A stretch of 64,000 nucleotides of DNA from an uncultured Gammaproteobacteria bacterium (GCA_964431555.1 CAYSJW010000023.1:33368-97367); one strand, 5' to 3'; shown: positions 3,331 to 16,970, numbered from the stretch's first letter. Notes: a model not told the origin generated them from the sequence alone. Made by a program: numbers and translations.

Positions 3331-3477
3331 GAACCTACTCAACACCTGGTGTTGAGAATTCACTAAATTTAATTCTTAATTCTCAAATAAACAAACCAGT
3401 AGCGAAACAACTTTGCAACAATAATTTACGAAAAAAAAGGGAGGGGTGTAATATCAGTTCACCCGACAGGTGTGATA
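3331..3477. repeat. Composite intergenic repeat copy. It comprises hairpin module P, the 78-bp AT-rich core module Q (cactaaatttaattcttaattctcaaataaacaaaccagtagcgaaacaactttgcaacaataatttacgaaaaaa) and module R (gaggggtgtaatatcagttcacccgacaggtgtgata).
   Basis: About 97% identical to 11186-11327 over about 145 bp. Confidence 0.85.
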
Positions 3478-5462: not shown

Positions 5463-5500
5463 TCAAACCTACTCAACACATGGTGTTGAAATTTTTGAGA
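5463..5500. repeat. Solo module P hairpin (ctcaacac-atg-gtgttgaa) followed by a T-rich run. It sits between the convergent rSAM gene and the 5517-6146 gene and could act as a bidirectional terminator.
   Basis: Hairpin plus atttttgagaattttttg directly after the rSAM stop codon. Confidence 0.55.
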
Positions 5501-9676: not shown

Positions 9677-9809
9677 TGGGAGGTGTTATAACAGTTCACC
9701 CGACGCGTGTGATATGACACTTACTTCTCACAAATCACAACTTATTACTAACCACCAATTCTTAACAAGATAACCCATTGTTGGAATTTACTCAAAACCC
9801 GGTGTTGGG
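9677..9809. repeat. Diverged composite repeat copy. Order is R-like module (gggaggtgttataacagttcacccgacgcgtgtgata), then a G-poor CA tract, then a P hairpin (ctcaaaac-ccg-gtgttggg).
   Basis: Direct comparison with the other copies. Confidence 0.75.
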
Positions 9810-10954: not shown

Positions 10955-11185
10955 TCACCCACACCCTACCCGGATTTTCTACCCCCAATCTACATAGAAA
11001 CAAAAAAATCCACGGGATAAATTTATTAATTCCTACTCAATGATTTGAACTAGTATACCTTAAAATTACATTTGTCTTTACCAAAACCAAAACTCTATAT
11101 GTTTATAAAAGGAGACACTCAAGTTTGAATTATTTTAATATTTTTTCTATAAAGAAAGGTTATCTAGATAATATAATAAATATAA

Positions 11186-11428
11186 CCTACTCAACACCTG
11201 GTGTTGAGAATTCACTAAATTTAATTCTTAATTCTCAAATAAACAAACCAGTAGCGAAACAACTTTGCAACAATAATTTACGAAAAAAGTGAGGGGTGTC
11301 ATATCAGTTCACCCGACGGGTGTGATATTTCTCTCACAACCCACTACCCAACACTCACTTCCCACAACTCACTCTTTCTGAAAAAACCTATTGTTCAAAC
11401 CTACTCAACACCCGGTGTTGAGAATTGT
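11186..11428. repeat. Longest composite repeat copy, in the order P hairpin, Q core, R hairpin, S G-free CA tract, second P hairpin.
   Basis: Q+R are near-identical to 3361-3477. S+P match 1921-1993. Confidence 0.85.
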
Positions 11429-11594
11429 TTCCATATTCTCAAACCGCAATTTACCATTAAACATAAAGATAATAACAAGAATAGAAAAAATTAAAAATAA
11501 TTAACAATTTAATCCACATCTTCGGTGGTGTCGTCCAAATTCTAACTTTCGCACACTAACTTTTTTACATCTAATCTAAAAAGAAAATTTACTA

Positions 11595-11644
11595 TTGACA
11601 TTGATTGTTGGTTTGATAATATAGACCTATACCTAGGGTATAGG
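11595..11644 (+). promoter_or_regulatory. Sigma-70-type promoter (TTGACA 11595-11600, 16-nt spacer, TAATAT 11617-11622) overlapped at its downstream end by an 8-3-8 inverted repeat (cctatacc-tag-ggtatagg, 11626-11644). The inverted repeat is a candidate CsoR operator.
   Basis: Hexamers and palindrome read directly. The palindrome has the ATACC...GGTAT character of known CsoR boxes and lies 34 nt upstream of csoR. Confidence 0.55.
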
Positions 11645-11677
11645 TATCAAAAAATAAAATTTCTGATTTTTAAAATC

Positions 11678-11950
11678 ATGACAACTCAAAAAGAAAAAAC
11701 TCTCATTAATTTCAAAAAAGCCCAAAGCCTATTGTCCAAAATTATTAAAATGCTGGAAGCCGATGAATATTGCATTGATATTATGCAGCAAAATTTGGCA
11801 GTGATAGGACTCTTAAAATCTGCCCACCAGATGCTCATGGAAAATCACCTCAATACCTGCTTTAAAACGGCAATGGCAACAAAAAAAGAAAAGAAGAAAC
11901 AAGAGATGGTTCAAGAAATATTAAAAGTTACAAAACTATTTAATAAATAA
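11678..11950 (+). CDS. csoR: CsoR/RcnR-family metal-sensing transcriptional repressor.
   Basis: 90 aa. Cys in ADEYCID, His in SAHQML, Cys in LNTCF, matching the x-Cys...His...Cys metal-ligand spacing of the CsoR family. Confidence 0.75.
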   Translation: MTTQKEKTLINFKKAQSLLSKIIKMLEADEYCIDIMQQNLAVIGLLKSAHQMLMENHLNTCFKTAMATKKEKKKQEMVQEILKVTKLFNK

Positions 11951-11959
11951 CCAAATTAC

Positions 11960-13486
11960 ATGTCTAAAAAAACTAAAGAATATACCCTTTACGTCAAAGG
12001 AATGCATTGTGCATCCTGTGAGATCTTGATTGAGAAAAGGTTACTAGAACTAAAAAACATAAAATTCGTCAAACCTTCAACAGCTAAAGGTGAAGTATTG
12101 ATTAAATACAACAACAAAAAACCTAGTCTTCACAAACTAAATGAAATTTTTAAAAAAGAAGGATATATCTTTTCCGAAGATCAAAAAGATGCAATAAGCA
12201 GCTTTAAGCCGAAAGAATTTTTTACTAATCTTGGCATAGGATTATTAATTATTATCGGTTTCATCGGATTAAATAGCTTAGGATTATCAGGATTGATAAA
12301 TGTGGGTTCAAAATCGTCTTTGCCAATGTTTTTTTTGTTCGGACTTCTTGCTGGGATTTCTAGCTGCGCAGCTTTAGTCGGCGGATTAATCCTTTCAATG
12401 TCAAAACATTGGAGTGAACTATATTCAGATTCCGAACCCCTATGGAAAAAAATTCAGCCTAATTTAATTTTTAACACAGGTAGATTTATTTCCTATGGAG
12501 TTTTTGGTGCAATATTAGGAGCAATAGGTAGCAAAATAAACTTTTCACTTAAATTTGGACCAATCTTGGTTGTTGTCATTTCTGTAATAATGATCTTTCT
12601 AGCTTTTCAAATGTTTGGACTTAAGATATTTAGAAAATTTCAATTTACAATGCCAAAATTTATAACAAAATTTATTACCAATGAGTCCAATTTCAAGGGC
12701 CGCTATATGCCATTTTTTATGGGTGCATTTACCTTCTTTTTGCCTTGCGGCTTTACGATAACCACTCAAAGTTTAGCCTTAATTTCCGGAAGTGCAATTC
12801 AGGGAGGACTAATTATGTTTTCATTCGCTTTGGGAACTTTACCAATGCTTTTACTTATAGGATTATCTAGCACCAATTTCCTACAAAAGCCGCATTTATC
12901 TGAAAGATTTTTTAAAATAGCCGGTATTTTGGTTCTATTTTTCGCTCTCTACAATATTAATTCTCAATTAAATGTCTTGGGGATCTCAAGCCTTAGCGAC
13001 TTAAGTTTCAATTCAACTAAATTTTACGATATTAATAAAAATGTTTCATCTAAAAACGAATACGGGCTGGCTCCAATTGTTAATGGCAAACAAATCCTGA
13101 AAATGAACGCTTTCTCTTATGGTTATTCGCCGGATTATTTTAAAGTAAGAACCGGAGTACCAGTAAGATGGGAAATTACAGATAAAGGAACCAGCGGTTG
13201 TACTAATGCTGTCATTTCAAAAAGTTTATTTGAAGGTGAAATTCCCTTGACCCCAGGTCAAACTAGTATAAAAGAATTTACTCCCGAAAAACCAGGTAAA
13301 TACAAATTTAGTTGTTGGATGGGAATGATTTCCGGGATTATAGAAGTTGTGGATAAGGATAATCTAACATCTCAAAGTAACATTTCAAATGATAACGGTG
13401 ATCTATTTGTCCCATCAAAGGTGGAGAATTCAAACGGAAGTTGTAGTTGTGGTACAAATGTGAAGTGCGGTTGTGGCGGAAGATAA
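11960..13486 (+). CDS. Copper-handling fusion protein: an N-terminal HMA domain, a polytopic DsbD/CcdA-like membrane core with two intramembrane Cys, and a C-terminal cupredoxin-like domain with a Cys-rich tail.
   Basis: GMHCASCE (MxCxxC). TM Cys in GISSCAAL and FLPCGFT. C-terminal ...GKYKFSCWMGMISGIIEV and ...SNGSCSCGTNVKCGCGGR. Confidence 0.6.
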   Translation: MSKKTKEYTLYVKGMHCASCEILIEKRLLELKNIKFVKPSTAKGEVLIKYNNKKPSLHKLNEIFKKEGYIFSEDQKDAISSFKPKEFFTNLGIGLLIIIGFIGLNSLGLSGLINVGSKSSLPMFFLFGLLAGISSCAALVGGLILSMSKHWSELYSDSEPLWKKIQPNLIFNTGRFISYGVFGAILGAIGSKINFSLKFGPILVVVISVIMIFLAFQMFGLKIFRKFQFTMPKFITKFITNESNFKGRYMPFFMGAFTFFLPCGFTITTQSLALISGSAIQGGLIMFSFALGTLPMLLLIGLSSTNFLQKPHLSERFFKIAGILVLFFALYNINSQLNVLGISSLSDLSFNSTKFYDINKNVSSKNEYGLAPIVNGKQILKMNAFSYGYSPDYFKVRTGVPVRWEITDKGTSGCTNAVISKSLFEGEIPLTPGQTSIKEFTPEKPGKYKFSCWMGMISGIIEVVDKDNLTSQSNISNDNGDLFVPSKVENSNGSCSCGTNVKCGCGGR

Positions 13487-13515
13487 AATTTTTCATTTAT
13501 ATAAACCGCAAAACA

Positions 13516-13659
13516 ATGAAAGAATTATACCAATGTTCAATTTGTAAGCTATGGTATAAAGAAAAAAAGTGGGCTAAAAAATGTAAAGCATGGTGCAAAA
13601 AGCATAAAAGTTGTAATTTGGAAATAACAAGACATGCAAAATCTAATAAAAACCCATGA
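13516..13659 (+). CDS. Small Cys-rich, Lys/Trp-rich protein (47 aa) with a CxxC-x12-CxxxC-x5-C pattern. Putative metal-binding (TRASH/zinc-ribbon-like).
   Basis: [34 protein letters not shown]... Its stop overlaps the copA start (ATGA). Confidence 0.45.
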
Positions 13660-15962
13660 GGAAAACAATCTTAAAAATCTCGGGTATGCACTGCGCCTCG
13701 TGCGTCACAAATATTGAAAATACCCTTAAAAAAGAAGTCGGGATTAAATCCGCTAATATAAATTTCGTTTCAGAGAAACTTTATTTGGAATTTGACCCCA
13801 CTGAAATAAGTATTACCAAAATTCAAAAAATTATAGAAAACTTGGGATACAGGGCAACAGAAGAAAATATTGAGGAAGAAGTGCACGATCATCGTAAGGA
13901 AGTAAAGAGCCGAGAAATCCAAAAGTTGAAAAAACGTTTTATTCTCGCTTTGATTTTCAGTCTGCCCATTATGTATATGGCAATGGGAGAAATGGTTGGA
14001 CTGCCGATGCCAATAATTTTTGAAAATTATGCCACTATTATTCAGTTTGTTTTGGCAACGGCTATTATCGTTTCTTGTTTTAATATTTGGACTTCTGGTT
14101 TCAAAAATTTACTACGGCTTTCCCCTAATATGGATTCTCTTATCTTCATTGGCACAGCTACGGCTTATTTTTATAGTTTAATTATTTCTGTTTTGATGTT
14201 TTTAGGTAAAGAAGTTGATATTCATCTTTACTATGAAAGCGCCGCTCTTATTTTAGCTTTTATTTCTTTGGGGAAATATCTTGAAGCCATTACTAAAGGA
14301 AAAACCAGTGAAGCAATTAAAAAACTAATCGGTCTTCAGCCAAAGGAAGCAACAATATTAATCGAAAATCCAAAATTCAAAAATCAAAATGACAATTCAA
14401 AATCCAAAATTGATGAATATGAAGAAAGGAAAATTCCAATATCAGAAGTTAAGGTTGGAGATATTATTCTGGTAAAGCCCGGCGAAAAAATTCCCGTTGA
14501 CGGAATTGTTATTGATGGTTACTCCGGTGTCGATGAAAAAGCAATTACGGGAGAAAGTATTCCGGTTGAAAAGAAGAAAGGCGATAAGGTAATCGGCGCA
14601 ACCATCAATAAAACAGGTATTTTGAGATTTAAAGCCACCCGAGTTGGCAGAGACACAATGCTAGCCCAAATAATAAAAATAGTCGAGGAAGCAATGGGCT
14701 CCAAAGCACCAATCCAACTTTTAGCAGACAAGGTCTCTTTTTATTTTGTTCCAACCGTAATTGTTATTGCTATTTTATCTTTTGCTGTCTGGTTTTCGTT
14801 AGGTCAACCTCTTGCTTTTGCTTTAACAGTTTTTGTTGCTATCTTAATTATTGCCTGCCCCTGCGCTTTGGGATTAGCAACTCCAACCGCTGTAATGATG
14901 GGCACAGGTTTAGCAGCAAAATACGGTATCTTAATTAAAAGTAGTAAAGCCTTGGAAATTGCTAGAAACATAGACATCGTCATTTTTGATAAAACGGGAA
15001 CGCTAACCAAAGGAGAACCAACTGTAACCGACATTATAGAAATTCAAAATTCAAAACCCAAAATTCAAAATGACAGTGGAAAATTAAAAATTTTACAGAT
15101 TGCGGCATCGGTTGAGAAAAATTCCGAACATCCTTTGGCTCAAGCAATCGTTAATAAAGCGAAAGAAGAAAAGATTAATTTCTCAAAAGTAAAAAATTTT
15201 CAAGCCATACCCGGTCAAGGGGTTTCGGCAGTGGTAGATGGCAAAAAAATACTTTTGGGAACAAGAAAGTTAATGGCTGATAATCAAATCAATCCAAGTC
15301 AAATTGAAGAAAAACTAACAGTCTTAGAAGATCAAGGAAAAACAGTAATGATTTTAGCCAAAGACAAAGAGATTATTGGAATTATTGCGGTGGCTGACAC
15401 TCTTAAGGAATACACAAAAGAAGCAGTTAAGATGCTTCATAAAATGAGAAAGAAAGTAGCAATAATTACCGGAGATAATAAAAGGGTTGGACAAGCGATT
15501 GCCAAGCAAATTGGTATAGATAGAGTTTTAGCTGAAGTTTTACCCCAAGAAAAAGCAACTGAAATTAAAAAATTACAAGAAGAGGGAAATATTGTAGCGA
15601 TGGTTGGTGATGGTATAAACGATGCGCCGGCTTTGGCTCAAGCTGATTTAGGGATAGCTTTAGGTTCTGGTACTGATGTGGCAATGGAAACGGGAGAAAT
15701 AGTTTTAATTAAAGATGATTTGAGAGATGTAATAACCACCATTGAGTTGAGCAAATATATTTTAAACAAAATTAAGCAAAATCTTTTCTGGGCTTTTTTC
15801 TACAATGTTATCGGTATACCAATCGCAGCAGGTGTCTTATATCCAGTTACCGGTTGGCTCTTAAATCCAGTAATCGCTTCCGCCTCAATGGCATTCTCCT
15901 CGATTAGTGTCGTTTCCAATACTCTCTTAATGAAAAGGTACAAATTACCAATAGCTGAATAA
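13656..15962 (+). CDS. copA: Copper-translocating P1B-type ATPase.
   Basis: N-terminal HMA GMHCASC, TM CPC motif ([12 protein letters not shown]), [17 protein letters not shown]. Confidence 0.92.
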
Positions 15963-16081
15963 TCATAAAAAAATTATTCCAATCATTCGGAACATCTGAA
16001 ATAACAAAAAATTTTTTTATTTGATTCTACAATTCATTTTCTAAAAGAATTACGAAGCCAATGTTTATATAACTTTCAAAG

Positions 16082-16152
16082 TCGGGGTGGGCAGAGTCGA
16101 ACTGCCGCCGGACGCACCCCATGCGCCCATTCTACCGTTAAACTACACCCCG
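16082..16152 (-). tRNA. tRNA-Pro (anticodon GGG).
   Basis: Hand-folded. Acceptor CGGGGTG/CACCCCG (7 bp). Anticodon stem GGCGC/GCGTC with loop AUGGGGU, giving anticodon GGG with G37. T arm GGCAG-UUCGACU-CUGCC. Discriminator A. CCA not encoded. Confidence 0.75.
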
Positions 16153-16179
16153 TCCTAGAAACAAACTTTGCTTTTCGCA

Positions 16180-16207
16180 ATTTATTGGCACCGATTGTAT
16201 TTTACAA
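16180..16207 (-). promoter_or_regulatory. Possible promoter for the tRNA-Pro gene (minus strand TTGTAA, 16 nt spacer, TAAATT), about 20 nt upstream of the mature 5' end.
   Basis: Hexamer match only. Confidence 0.3.
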
Positions 16208-16307
16208 CCAAATGCCTTATTCTGCATATATAAATAATCTCTGGGTGCCAAGATCACCAATCACCGGTGGTGCTTATTACCCGAAATTATTAAATTGATA
16301 CCGAAAT

Positions 16308-16970
16308 ATGATCGATACCATCCTAAACAGGCGAACAAGATATCTTCAGATTGCTTTAAACAGCACTCTTTCTGAAGCAACACAAATAATCCGCACACTT
16401 CCTAAAAGTGAGAGAATTCTTTTGGAAGCGGGTACTCCATTAATCAAACATTACGGGATTGAAGCAATAAAGTTCATAAAAAGTCTAAGACCTCAAAGTT
16501 ATATTGTTGCCGATCTAAAGACTATGGACAGAGGGGAGACGGAAGTAATTTTGGCAAAACAAGGAGGGGCTTCAGGTGTAGTTGCCCTTGGACAAGCGCC
16601 CATTGAAACCTTAGATAGCTTCACCCAATCTTGCGATAAATATGGTTTAGACAGCATGGTTGATATGATGAATATAGACTCTCCAATCAAGGTCTTAAGA
16701 AAACTCAAAAAATTACCCAAAGTTGTCATACTTCACCGCGGAGTTGATGAGGAAAAATTCAACCCTGACAAACCCATCCCCTATATTCAAATAAACAAAG
16801 TGCGTTCAAGTTATGATGTTTTAATTGCAATCGCCGGTGGAGATACAATAAGAGAAGTCCAAAGGGCAATTTTCAACGATGCAAACATTGTAGTTGTCTG
16901 GAAAGAATTTTATCAGGCAACCTCTCAAACAGCGAAAATTGCAGAGGAATTTTTGAGAGTTATAAAATAA
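16308..16970 (+). CDS. 3-hexulose-6-phosphate synthase-like enzyme (OMP-decarboxylase/KGPDC superfamily).
   Basis: LQIALN...LEAGTPLIK...IVADLKTMDRGE...IAGG pattern typical of HPS/KGPDC. Confidence 0.6.
   Translation: MIDTILNRRTRYLQIALNSTLSEATQIIRTLPKSERILLEAGTPLIKHYGIEAIKFIKSLRPQSYIVADLKTMDRGETEVILAKQGGASGVVALGQAPIETLDSFTQSCDKYGLDSMVDMMNIDSPIKVLRKLKKLPKVVILHRGVDEEKFNPDKPIPYIQINKVRSSYDVLIAIAGGDTIREVQRAIFNDANIVVVWKEFYQATSQTAKIAEEFLRVIK

Follow-up and report, generated by a model that had tools for sequence, protein, structure and literature searches.

Four co-directional genes, preceded by a promoter and a predicted operator, mark positions 11,595 to 15,962 of a 64,000-nucleotide stretch of DNA assigned to an uncultured Gammaproteobacteria bacterium (GCA_964431555.1, CAYSJW010000023.1:33368-97367). 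The whole stretch is called the window here, and positions are counted from its first letter. The genes lie on the plus strand and encode, in this order, the repressor CsoR, a 508-aa fusion protein, a 47-aa Cys-rich protein and the ATPase CopA. A gap of 9 nt separates csoR from the fusion gene, and one of 29 nt the latter from the 47-aa open reading frame (ORF), the TGA codon of which overlaps the ATG of copA (ATGA at 13656-13659). A sequence-only reading had picked out the same four genes, including the overlap, as a copper operon, and had set the fusion protein apart as unusual. The parts of this protein are all of known kinds: an HMA domain, a membrane core of the DsbD type, and a cupredoxin domain, assigned here by comparison to the CupA type and predicted to face outwards. 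Their combination is uncharacterised, and at present mis-annotated.

Domains and metal ligands of the fusion protein

The fusion gene spans positions 11960..13486 on the plus strand. According to Pfam matches, an AlphaFold2 model and charge bias, its product is predicted to cross the membrane seven times, with the N-terminus inside and the C-terminus outside. The CopZ-like HMA domain (residues 9-69; 11984..12166, plus strand), predicted to be cytoplasmic, carries the motif GMHCASC at residues 14-20, matches PF00403 at 40.4 bits (cut-off 24.8, E=3.9e-10), and is folded βαββαβ in the model. Its PDB matches are metal-binding domains of CopA and ATP7B; a weak NCBIfam match to MerTP was also seen in this part of the protein. 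Next come a transmembrane (TM) helix, TM0, and a six-helix DsbD_2/DsbD_TM core (residues 84-340; 12209..12979, plus strand). The core matches DsbD_2 (PF13386; 117.7 bits, cut-off 24.9, E=8.4e-34, residues 124-331) and DsbD_TM (PF02683; 46 bits, cut-off 27.1, E=5e-12), and NCBIfam returned DsbD at E=1.9e-8; the profile search of this middle segment gave no unrelated transporter. Two cysteines, C136 (SSCAAL, 134-139) and C263 (LPCGFT, 261-266), reside at kinks of TM1 and TM4 in the model.

Conservation was assessed in an alignment of 24 homologues featuring 50-80% identity. Invariant in all are C17 and C20 of the HMA domain, C136, C263, C414 (in GCTNA) and the motif C452-W-M454-G-M456, as well as ~60 positions of the core beyond C136 and C263. 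The Pfam matches and the invariant cysteines bear out the HMA, DsbD-like and cupredoxin-like parts, and the two intramembrane cysteines, that had been read from the sequence.

The cupredoxin domain (residues 368-466; 13061..13357, plus strand), predicted to be extracytoplasmic, matches Cupredoxin_1 over residues 377-459 (E=7e-8). It had been described as devoid of the classical His ligands, and indeed no His is invariant in it among the 24 homologues. Its closest match among solved structures is CupA of Streptococcus pneumoniae, both by sequence (E=4.7e-7) and by Foldseek (E=1.4e-6, target-normalised TM-score 0.87); the second in both searches is the cupredoxin metal-binding domain of pneumococcal CopA (sequence E=5.7e-6). 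The fusion domain has the fold and the ligand set of CupA (PDB 4F2E/2MRY; the CopA domain is 4F2F). The sequence alignment pairs C414 with the cysteine of CupA SPCLDQ, and FSCWMGM (450-456) with FACGMNM. The CupA binuclear-site ligands Cys74, Cys111, Met113 and Met115 align to C414, C452, M454 and M456, and since all four positions match, the complete S1/S2 Cu(I) ligand set is kept. On this alignment FSCWMGM is to be read as the CxMxM motif of CupA, not as a degenerate blue-copper site. The Cys-rich tail noticed earlier, CSCGTNVKCGC (residues 495-505, with C495, C497, C503 and C505; 13442..13474, plus strand), is disordered in the model; it is found in most homologues, and is absent from P0114 and P0117. 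A tandem pair of CupA-like domains, each featuring GCTNA or GCTSA and FSCWMGM, was observed in the Actinomycetota homologues P0079, P0082, P0091, P0092 and P0106, which carry a differing tail that ends in CPCCG.

The model has a moderate predicted local distance difference test (pLDDT) score of 65, and its secondary structure is clear. Helix 84-109 is followed by six helices, the first of which (118-132/135-154) breaks at C136, and the fourth (250-260/264-276) at C263; a disordered linker of ~35 residues, a β-sandwich and the disordered tail follow the core. Seven helices place the two ends of the protein on opposite sides of the membrane. The mean number of Lys and Arg residues over the 24 homologues is 16.5 in predicted cytoplasmic loops vs 3.0 in external loops, and the first 90 residues hold 19 of them and no signal peptide. 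The HMA domain is thus predicted to be cytoplasmic, the CupA-like domain and the tail external. The reverse arrangement, with the HMA domain outside and the CupA-like domain inside, as in a MerP/MerT-like importer, was rejected, given the lack of a signal peptide, the 19 basic residues at the N-terminus and the charge bias.

An outward CupA-like domain, if the prediction holds, changes the likely mechanism. CupA has one N-terminal helix, is cytoplasmic, serves a cupredoxin-type CopA domain and is controlled by CopY. In the fusion protein, by contrast, the domain comes after seven helices and is predicted to lie outside; the partner CopA carries an HMA domain, CsoR acts as regulator, and most hosts are Patescibacteria. 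According to a 2020 review, CupA is restricted to a few streptococci (PMC7558416). As modelled, the fusion protein has a CupA-type domain but would be no CupA orthologue in role.

Flanking cop genes, promoter and predicted operator

The csoR gene (11678..11950, plus strand) encodes a 90-aa repressor of the CsoR/RcnR family, which matches PF02583 over residues 5-84 (57.6 bits, cut-off 22.8, E=1.7e-15) and has the copper sensor RicR as top NCBIfam match. The residues of its x-C-H-C fingerprint, C32, H57 and C61, are 25 and 4 positions apart, and Y31 precedes C32. The ligands of Mycobacterium tuberculosis CsoR, C36/H61/C65, are identically spaced. The N-terminal His of RcnR-type proteins is not present in the sequence, and assignment of the regulator to RcnR, FrmR or CstR was ruled out by the fingerprint. 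At the other end of the operon, copA (13656..15962, plus strand) encodes a 768-aa P1B-1 Cu(I)-exporting ATPase, recognized by TIGR01511 (599 bits, cut-off 397), Pfam domains and the motifs CPC (401-403), DKTGT (445-449), YNx4P (716-722) and MAFSS (745-749). Its single N-terminal HMA domain carries, at residues 10-16, the same GMHCASC as the HMA domain of the fusion protein.

Upstream of csoR, a sigma-70-type promoter (11595..11622, plus strand) is made by a -35 box TTGACA (11595-11600), a 16-nt spacer and a -10 box TAATAT (11617-11622), preceded by TGa as in extended -10 promoters. It scores 10/12 and is the top site within 11000-16400. Promoter-like sites as a class are not enriched in this interval (25 observed vs 20.3±5.8 in shuffles), so that the match alone is little proof. 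The predicted operator, ACCTATACC-TAG-GGTATAGGT (11625..11645, no strand assigned), identified by sequence and by comparison with related loci, starts 2 nt past the -10 box. It thus covers the likely transcription start, and a bound repressor would be placed to block initiation. Promoter and palindrome lie where the sequence-only reading had put them; the 8-3-8 palindrome described there, cctatacc-tag-ggtatagg, is real, but each arm is one base longer, making it a perfect 9-3-9. No other perfect copy occurs in the window, and by our own estimate ~0.2 single 9-3-9 palindromes are expected by chance.

The motif, with at most 5 mismatches over 18 positions, was found within ~200 nt 5' of csoR (mostly 15-40 nt) in 48 of the 57 csoR-bearing related loci. 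When 150-nt windows 5' of csoR were taken, it marked 47/57 loci, vs ~1% of 150-nt windows drawn at random from these loci. An alignment of the site in the window and the 48 others, taken from 200-nt upstream regions (n=49), yielded the family consensus ACCyATACC-N3-GGTmkrGGT, in which ACC..TACC...GGT...GGT is nearly invariant; a TTGACA/-10 pair is found directly 5' in 42 of the 49 sites. It is this comparative conservation, and not the lone palindrome or the promoter match, that provides the decisive evidence for a putative operator. Known CsoR operators are pseudopalindromes in which a TAC/GTA dyad bridges G-tracts, typically as TAC-N9-GTA (PMC3902906). The likeness to these sites that had been proposed holds for the dyad, the C/G runs, the overlap with the promoter and the recurrence across loci, but not for the dyad spacing, which is N5 instead of the canonical N9. 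We regard the predicted site as a CsoR-type operator of variant geometry.

Extra operator copies were observed just 5' of copA in L034 (10449) and L080 (8262), where copA is separated from the fusion gene, and 5' of a copZ-copA unit in L064 (3474); these second operators fit a two-promoter regulon. An operator-like site with 3 mismatches is found just beyond the end of copA in L017 (9786). The csoR-copZ-copA operons of Bacillus subtilis, Listeria monocytogenes and Streptomyces share with the operon in the window the repressor fingerprint, the promoter-overlapping operator, a CopZ-like HMA domain and a P1B-1 ATPase. They differ from it in that the 508-aa membrane fusion replaces CopZ, and TAC-N5-GTA replaces TAC-N9-GTA.

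Distribution of the family and genes of related loci

At least 3,756 database homologues of the fusion protein were retrieved, nearly all with the same Pfam set and mostly from Patescibacteria. Relatives are encoded by at least 552 species-level genomes, which include some Actinomycetota, Thermodesulfovibrionales and Atribacteria. The cupredoxin domain searched alone added little, its matches being for the most part Cupredoxin_1 proteins that are short or incomplete. The architecture is common, though unstudied. In line with the sequence-only reading, which had taken the module to be functionally uncharacterised, no functional study of an HMA/DsbD_2/Cupredoxin_1 fusion was found in the literature searched, and the only related report found is a computational prediction (PMC4938975). 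The gene neighbourhoods of 80 genome loci encoding a fusion relative were compared. A csoR homologue lies upstream in 57 of them, and copA downstream on the same strand, often <100 nt away, in 69. Linkage of the homologues to csoR and copA is almost universal.

NCBI and JGI name these homologues 'sulfite exporter TauE/SafE family protein'. Taken at its word, the label describes a TauE/SafE-type exporter of sulfite or other anions, unrelated to metals. TauE (PF01925) is not matched by the fusion protein at E≤0.1, and the database name is therefore misleading; moreover, both domains flanking the core are copper-binding, and csoR and copA are neighbours in most loci. Such a function is already contradicted, and hardly credible.

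Genes located between the fusion gene and copA mostly encode membrane-anchored Cys-rich or thiol-redox proteins. Proteins of ~325 aa, in which a single TM helix joins an HMA domain inside the cell to a Thioredoxin_4/DSBA domain outside, are found in cop loci L009 (7579-8550), L020, L023, L029, L032, L038, L044 and L081 (1892-2905); we know of no characterised example of this family. Anchored CxWC...GVPTF domains, of the thioredoxin fold by motif and with no Pfam call, are fused to FtrD-like/DUF2318 domains (L007, 2300-3085) or, in L025 (8135-9007), directly to a CupA-like domain which keeps GCTNA and FSCWMGM. The latter, a Rosetta-stone fusion, ties the CupA-type domain to external thiol-redox chemistry.

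Small anchored Cys-dense proteins (YkCCINPPCTMCYmEANQWNNFTAGTCACDDLIAQGKePCPQCK), with no Pfam match at E≤0.01, also reside between the fusion gene and copA, as in L007 (1922-2269), L020 (8540-8968), L026 (2743-3102) and others. PCYCGC-like Cys-rich proteins and CuA-motif cupredoxins are found in the same position; DsrE, DUF1858 and CopZ are encoded by other intervening genes.

Anchored cupredoxins with a CuA-like CxxxCxxxHxxM motif were noted in L020 (9787-10155), L009 (9406-10311), L026 (4091-4975) and L032 (9396-9824). They match Cupredoxin_1 and, weakly, COX2, and are sometimes fused to DUF2318/FtrD-like domains; to our knowledge, their hosts are not known for respiratory oxidases. The fusion protein might be seen as a supplier, which delivers copper to, or inserts it into, external cuproproteins of this kind, or as a copper importer. 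The presence of CuA-motif cupredoxins in several related loci fits this role, but the repressor is of a type freed by excess Cu(I), the fusion gene is co-transcribed with that of an exporting P1B-1 ATPase, and the operon in the window encodes no such cuproprotein. Copper supply is considered very unlikely.

Loci 53-79% identical to the operon, marked by the same low-GC promoter and operator, occur in L001, L015, L034, L054, L061, L071 and L076, which are labelled uncultured Gammaproteobacteria or Pseudomonadales. These contigs are probably mis-binned or mislabelled.

The 47-aa protein

The small gene (13516..13659, plus strand), the stop of which overlaps the copA start, encodes a Lys-rich protein (13 of 47 residues) with no TM segment. 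Its five cysteines are arranged as C7-x2-C10-x12-C23-x3-C27-x5-C33, the pattern noted in the sequence-only reading, and all are invariant in 14 close homologues. DUF7128 (PF23447) is matched by 12 of these 14 (best E=5.6e-6), the protein in the window itself giving no match at E≤1; a profile built from the 14 homologues matched 815 cluster representatives. Across seven loci, nonsynonymous differences (pN 0.03-0.2) are rarer than synonymous ones (pS 0.5-1.0), which are near saturation. Such purifying selection indicates that the ORF is a real gene. The predicted fold is a ββα Cys finger.

The gene was found in 3 of the 80 fusion loci only, and is hence an optional accessory, not part of the module core. 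Its genomic contexts are consistently beside heavy-metal modules. The gene order of the window recurs in L086; in L081 the order is csoR-like gene, small gene, overlapping P1B-ATPase gene and cation diffusion facilitator transporter gene, and in L083 ArsR ... small gene, HMA, ATPase. L085 features DsbD_2 + Cupredoxin_1, HMA, DUF2933, Cupredoxin_1, ATPase and the overlapping small gene, and in L088 the small gene resides in a cluster of MerC, thioredoxin and glutaredoxin genes. From these data the 47-aa protein is read as a putative cytoplasmic, thiophilic-metal-binding partner of P1B-ATPases.

DUF7128 fingers were also seen fused to DUF2933 (P0137), to an HMBD-like YTCPMHP...CPDCGM motif recognized by eye (P0139), to a polytopic CPVC-containing domain (P0227) and to an unassigned ~115-aa domain with conserved Y-x-C-x-L-C (P0190/P0192/P0224). 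Pfam was mostly uninformative on the long DUF7128-containing proteins, among which only DUF2933 in P0137 and the motif in P0139 bear on metals. The fusion to TruB (P0216) looks like gene-call read-through, and was discarded.

The Cx2C...Cx3C pattern of TRASH domains recalls that of the 47-aa protein, and TRASH-type CopM is a natural comparator. The Cys spacer of the 47-aa protein is shorter than that of TRASH, no Pfam YHS/TRASH match was found, and the predicted fold is a ββα finger. Like CopM and PacL, the protein is small and encoded immediately 5' of a P1B-ATPase gene to which it is translationally coupled; the likeness is positional, homology being unsupported, and, unlike PacL, it has no TM helix. 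PacL are small membrane proteins encoded 5' of P1B-ATPases, which bind the metal-binding domains of the latter and organise efflux platforms (PMC13460109).

The PacL precedent, as the identity of GMHCASC in the fusion protein and in CopA, would also suit a role of the fusion protein as scaffold or escort only. Its HMA domain would dock CopA, the CupA-like domain would receive the pumped Cu(I) in the manner of CusF or of an effluxosome, and the membrane cysteines would be structural. A six-helix core with invariant cysteines at pseudo-symmetric kinks of TM1 and TM4, and ~60 other invariant positions, goes far beyond the needs of an anchor, and this role is judged unlikely.

The rest of the window

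The operon unit is closed by a tRNA-Pro gene on the minus strand (16081-16152). Elsewhere, the window includes short minus-strand ORFs packed into a dense block, and two very large ones (1,242 and 1,146 aa). Read by position and size only, the block is a ribosomal-protein cluster, and the large ORFs are rpoB and rpoC. This reading, and the fact that relatives are named Patescibacteria, place the operon in the chromosomal core of a bacterium of the Candidate Phyla Radiation (CPR). The GC content of the operon is not distinct from that of its surroundings (0.30-0.38).

An unusually long non-coding gap of 723 nt (10955-11677), which includes a G-poor stretch (11340-11400), lies on the upstream side of the operon. 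Rfam gave no match in this gap 5' of the promoter. It holds, 214 nt apart, two copies of a ~45-nt intergenic repeat built around a perfect 8-3-8 palindrome, CTCAACAC-CNG-GTGTTGAG, with flank consensus AAACCCATTGTTnGAACCTACTCAACACCnGGTGTTGAGAATT in the same orientation. Six copies with at most 2 mismatches (1971-1989, 3338-3356, 5472-5490, 9791-9809, 11190-11208 and 11404-11422) were found, vs 0 expected in shuffles, all in inter-ORF gaps of the first 12 kb. The repeat could be a repetitive extragenic palindrome or an element resembling miniature inverted-repeat transposable elements, a hairpin terminator or a regulator site.

Relation to known thiol and metal relays

The fusion protein resembles DsbD, CcdA and ScsB in the DsbD_2 and DsbD_TM matches, in having one essential-looking Cys each in TM1 and TM4, located at kinks, and in the external C-terminal domain that bears cysteines. 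It differs from them as this domain is a cupredoxin with widely spaced cysteines, instead of a thioredoxin-fold CxxC acceptor; additional differences are the extra N-terminal helix, the cytoplasmic HMA domain, the single PC motif and the lack of a sequence match to solved CcdA. The ScsB-ScsC pair links the DsbD family to copper tolerance. Roles of the DsbD family in copper and mercury resistance have been reported (PMC4608589).

COG2836 proteins, made by HMA, DsbD_2 and DUF2318 domains, were predicted to belong to the CsoR meta-regulon of gut Firmicutes in a 2016 computational study (PMC4938975). They share with the fusion protein the HMA-DsbD_2 chassis and the predicted control by CsoR, and P0045, a close homologue of the fusion protein, adds a DUF2318/FtrD-like domain after the cupredoxin. 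COG2836 proteins end in DUF2318, whereas the fusion protein has the CupA-type cupredoxin, and the COG2836 assignment is itself only a computational prediction. The Mer relay (MerP - MerT/MerTP - NmerA) also combines HMA domains and membrane cysteines for ligand exchange of a thiophilic metal. The likeness is one of analogy only: Mer proteins import, their HMA domain is outside, and the MerT fold is found in place of DsbD_2.

A putative thiol relay and the alternative of a copper conduit

We tentatively interpret the operon as a Cu(I)-derepressed detoxification operon, in which the fusion protein would be an outward thiol relay that keeps a CupA-type trap reduced. This interpretation builds on the domain identities, ligand conservation, gene linkage and operator conservation reported above, and on the predicted topology; the cargo of the membrane cysteines and all transfer steps are inferred. 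Apo-CsoR would sit on the palindrome abutting the -10 box, and be released upon binding of Cu(I) at C32/H57/C61; csoR, the fusion gene, the small gene and copA would then be transcribed together. CopA would export Cu(I) from the cytoplasm. Both this regulatory scheme and the part played by CopA accord with what is well established for their families. The CupA-type domain, with its C414/C452 bis-thiolate and M454/M456, and the Cys tail would be tethered outside via the flexible linker of ~35 residues. C136 and C263 of the DsbD/CcdA-like core may act as a thiol-disulfide relay which sends reducing equivalents outward, as in DsbD and ScsB. Kept reduced in this way, the external CupA-type cysteines and the tail could trap copper at the surface by the exit of CopA, and perhaps also reduce it; the S1 cysteines of CupA reduce Cu(II) in vitro (PMC7558416). 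In related loci the relay may supply the co-encoded external thioredoxin-fold and Cys-rich proteins as well. The HMA domain might report cytoplasmic Cu(I), or dock the fusion protein to the identical GMHCASC domain of CopA, and the ATPase would have the 47-aa Cys finger as an optional metal-binding partner in the cytoplasm.

The alternative is a direct Cu(I) conduit, in which the metal would pass from the HMA CxxC to C136/C263, then to C414/C452, M454/M456 and the Cys tail by thiolate exchange. Copper would in this way be exported or handed off without ATP and alongside CopA, in a mirror image of the MerP-MerT-NmerA mercury relay. We rate the conduit as possible, and prefer the thiol relay to it. 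The core belongs to the DsbD family, its cysteines are found at the canonical TM1 and TM4 kinks, and an external Cys-bearing domain comes next, which is the layout of DsbD. External thioredoxin-fold proteins, in need of reductant, abound in sister loci. Thioredoxin-like domains take the fusion position of the DsbD_2 core before CupA-like and DUF2318 domains, a finding which speaks against the conduit too. A single TM helix cannot pass metal, and the HMA domain of the HMA-TM-thioredoxin proteins must therefore sense or dock; such use of an HMA domain for sensing or docking, in proteins that could form no conduit, favours the relay. Finally, nothing evident would drive export through a passive copper carrier: no energy coupling is apparent, and under external copper stress such a carrier would tend to work inward. 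The conduit would also be redundant with the CopA of the same operon.

Several data weigh against the thiol relay, and some of them speak for the conduit. A fused CopZ-like domain is most simply a Cu(I) donor; it is fused on the cytoplasmic side, and in L085, where the gene is split, the HMA gene is still adjacent. Methionines M211, M218 and M254 of the TM region are invariant in the 24 homologues, and would suit a Cu(I) path. In DsbD and CcdA, Pro residues flank both active cysteines (PCxxP-type motifs); in the fusion protein a Pro is found beside C263 only (P262, TM4), SSCAAL of TM1 having none. The profile of the TM core gave no detectable sequence match to solved structures, CcdA included, and a core so divergent is easier to reconcile with copper as cargo. 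The operon in the window encodes no external thioredoxin-like partner, and external thiols have less need of protection in anoxic water, the habitat of many CPR organisms. The pLDDT of the model is only moderate, the topology rests on prediction rather than measurement, and no experimental study was found for any member of the family.

The conduit gains further support from the invariant Cu(I)-type ligands in all three modules and from the location of the fusion gene within the CsoR regulon. PF13386 is treated by InterPro as the UreH-like TM domain, and the UreH Ni permeases may be among its members. Some UreH members transport Ni (PMC2667541), and the LysE superfamily, which contains DsbD, is mostly made by exporters of metals or amino acids (PMC4608589). 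We consider it less likely than not that the DsbD/CcdA fold serves here, repurposed, as a self-contained Cu(I) conduit that needs no ATP and has copper, not electrons, on C136/C263; the outward thiol relay is retained as the preferred interpretation.

Significance

Comparison and modelling extend the sequence-only reading in the CupA-type identity of the cupredoxin domain, its predicted outward facing, the wide spread of the family, the variant geometry of the candidate operator, and the status of the 47-aa gene as an occasional accessory. With the conserved promoter-operator pair, a CsoR motif is at hand for predicting regulons of CPR bacteria, and the DUF7128 finger may be added, as a new candidate, to the small partner proteins of P1B-ATPases. 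Copper-resistance inventories of CPR bacteria would miss the family, hidden by the 'sulfite exporter' mislabel. CupA has been treated as a streptococcal cytoplasmic peculiarity; hundreds of Patescibacteria genomes, and some of Actinomycetota, encode a predicted outward version fused to a DsbD-like core, which widens the range of the CupA solution. The fusion protein is a compact, single-polypeptide system in which to ask whether a two-cysteine CcdA-type core can carry a thiophilic metal besides electrons. Should the conduit prove true, the DsbD fold would gain its first member that carries metal, and CupA its first extracytoplasmic representative, in hundreds of CPR species with minimal genomes that otherwise hold few copper defences.

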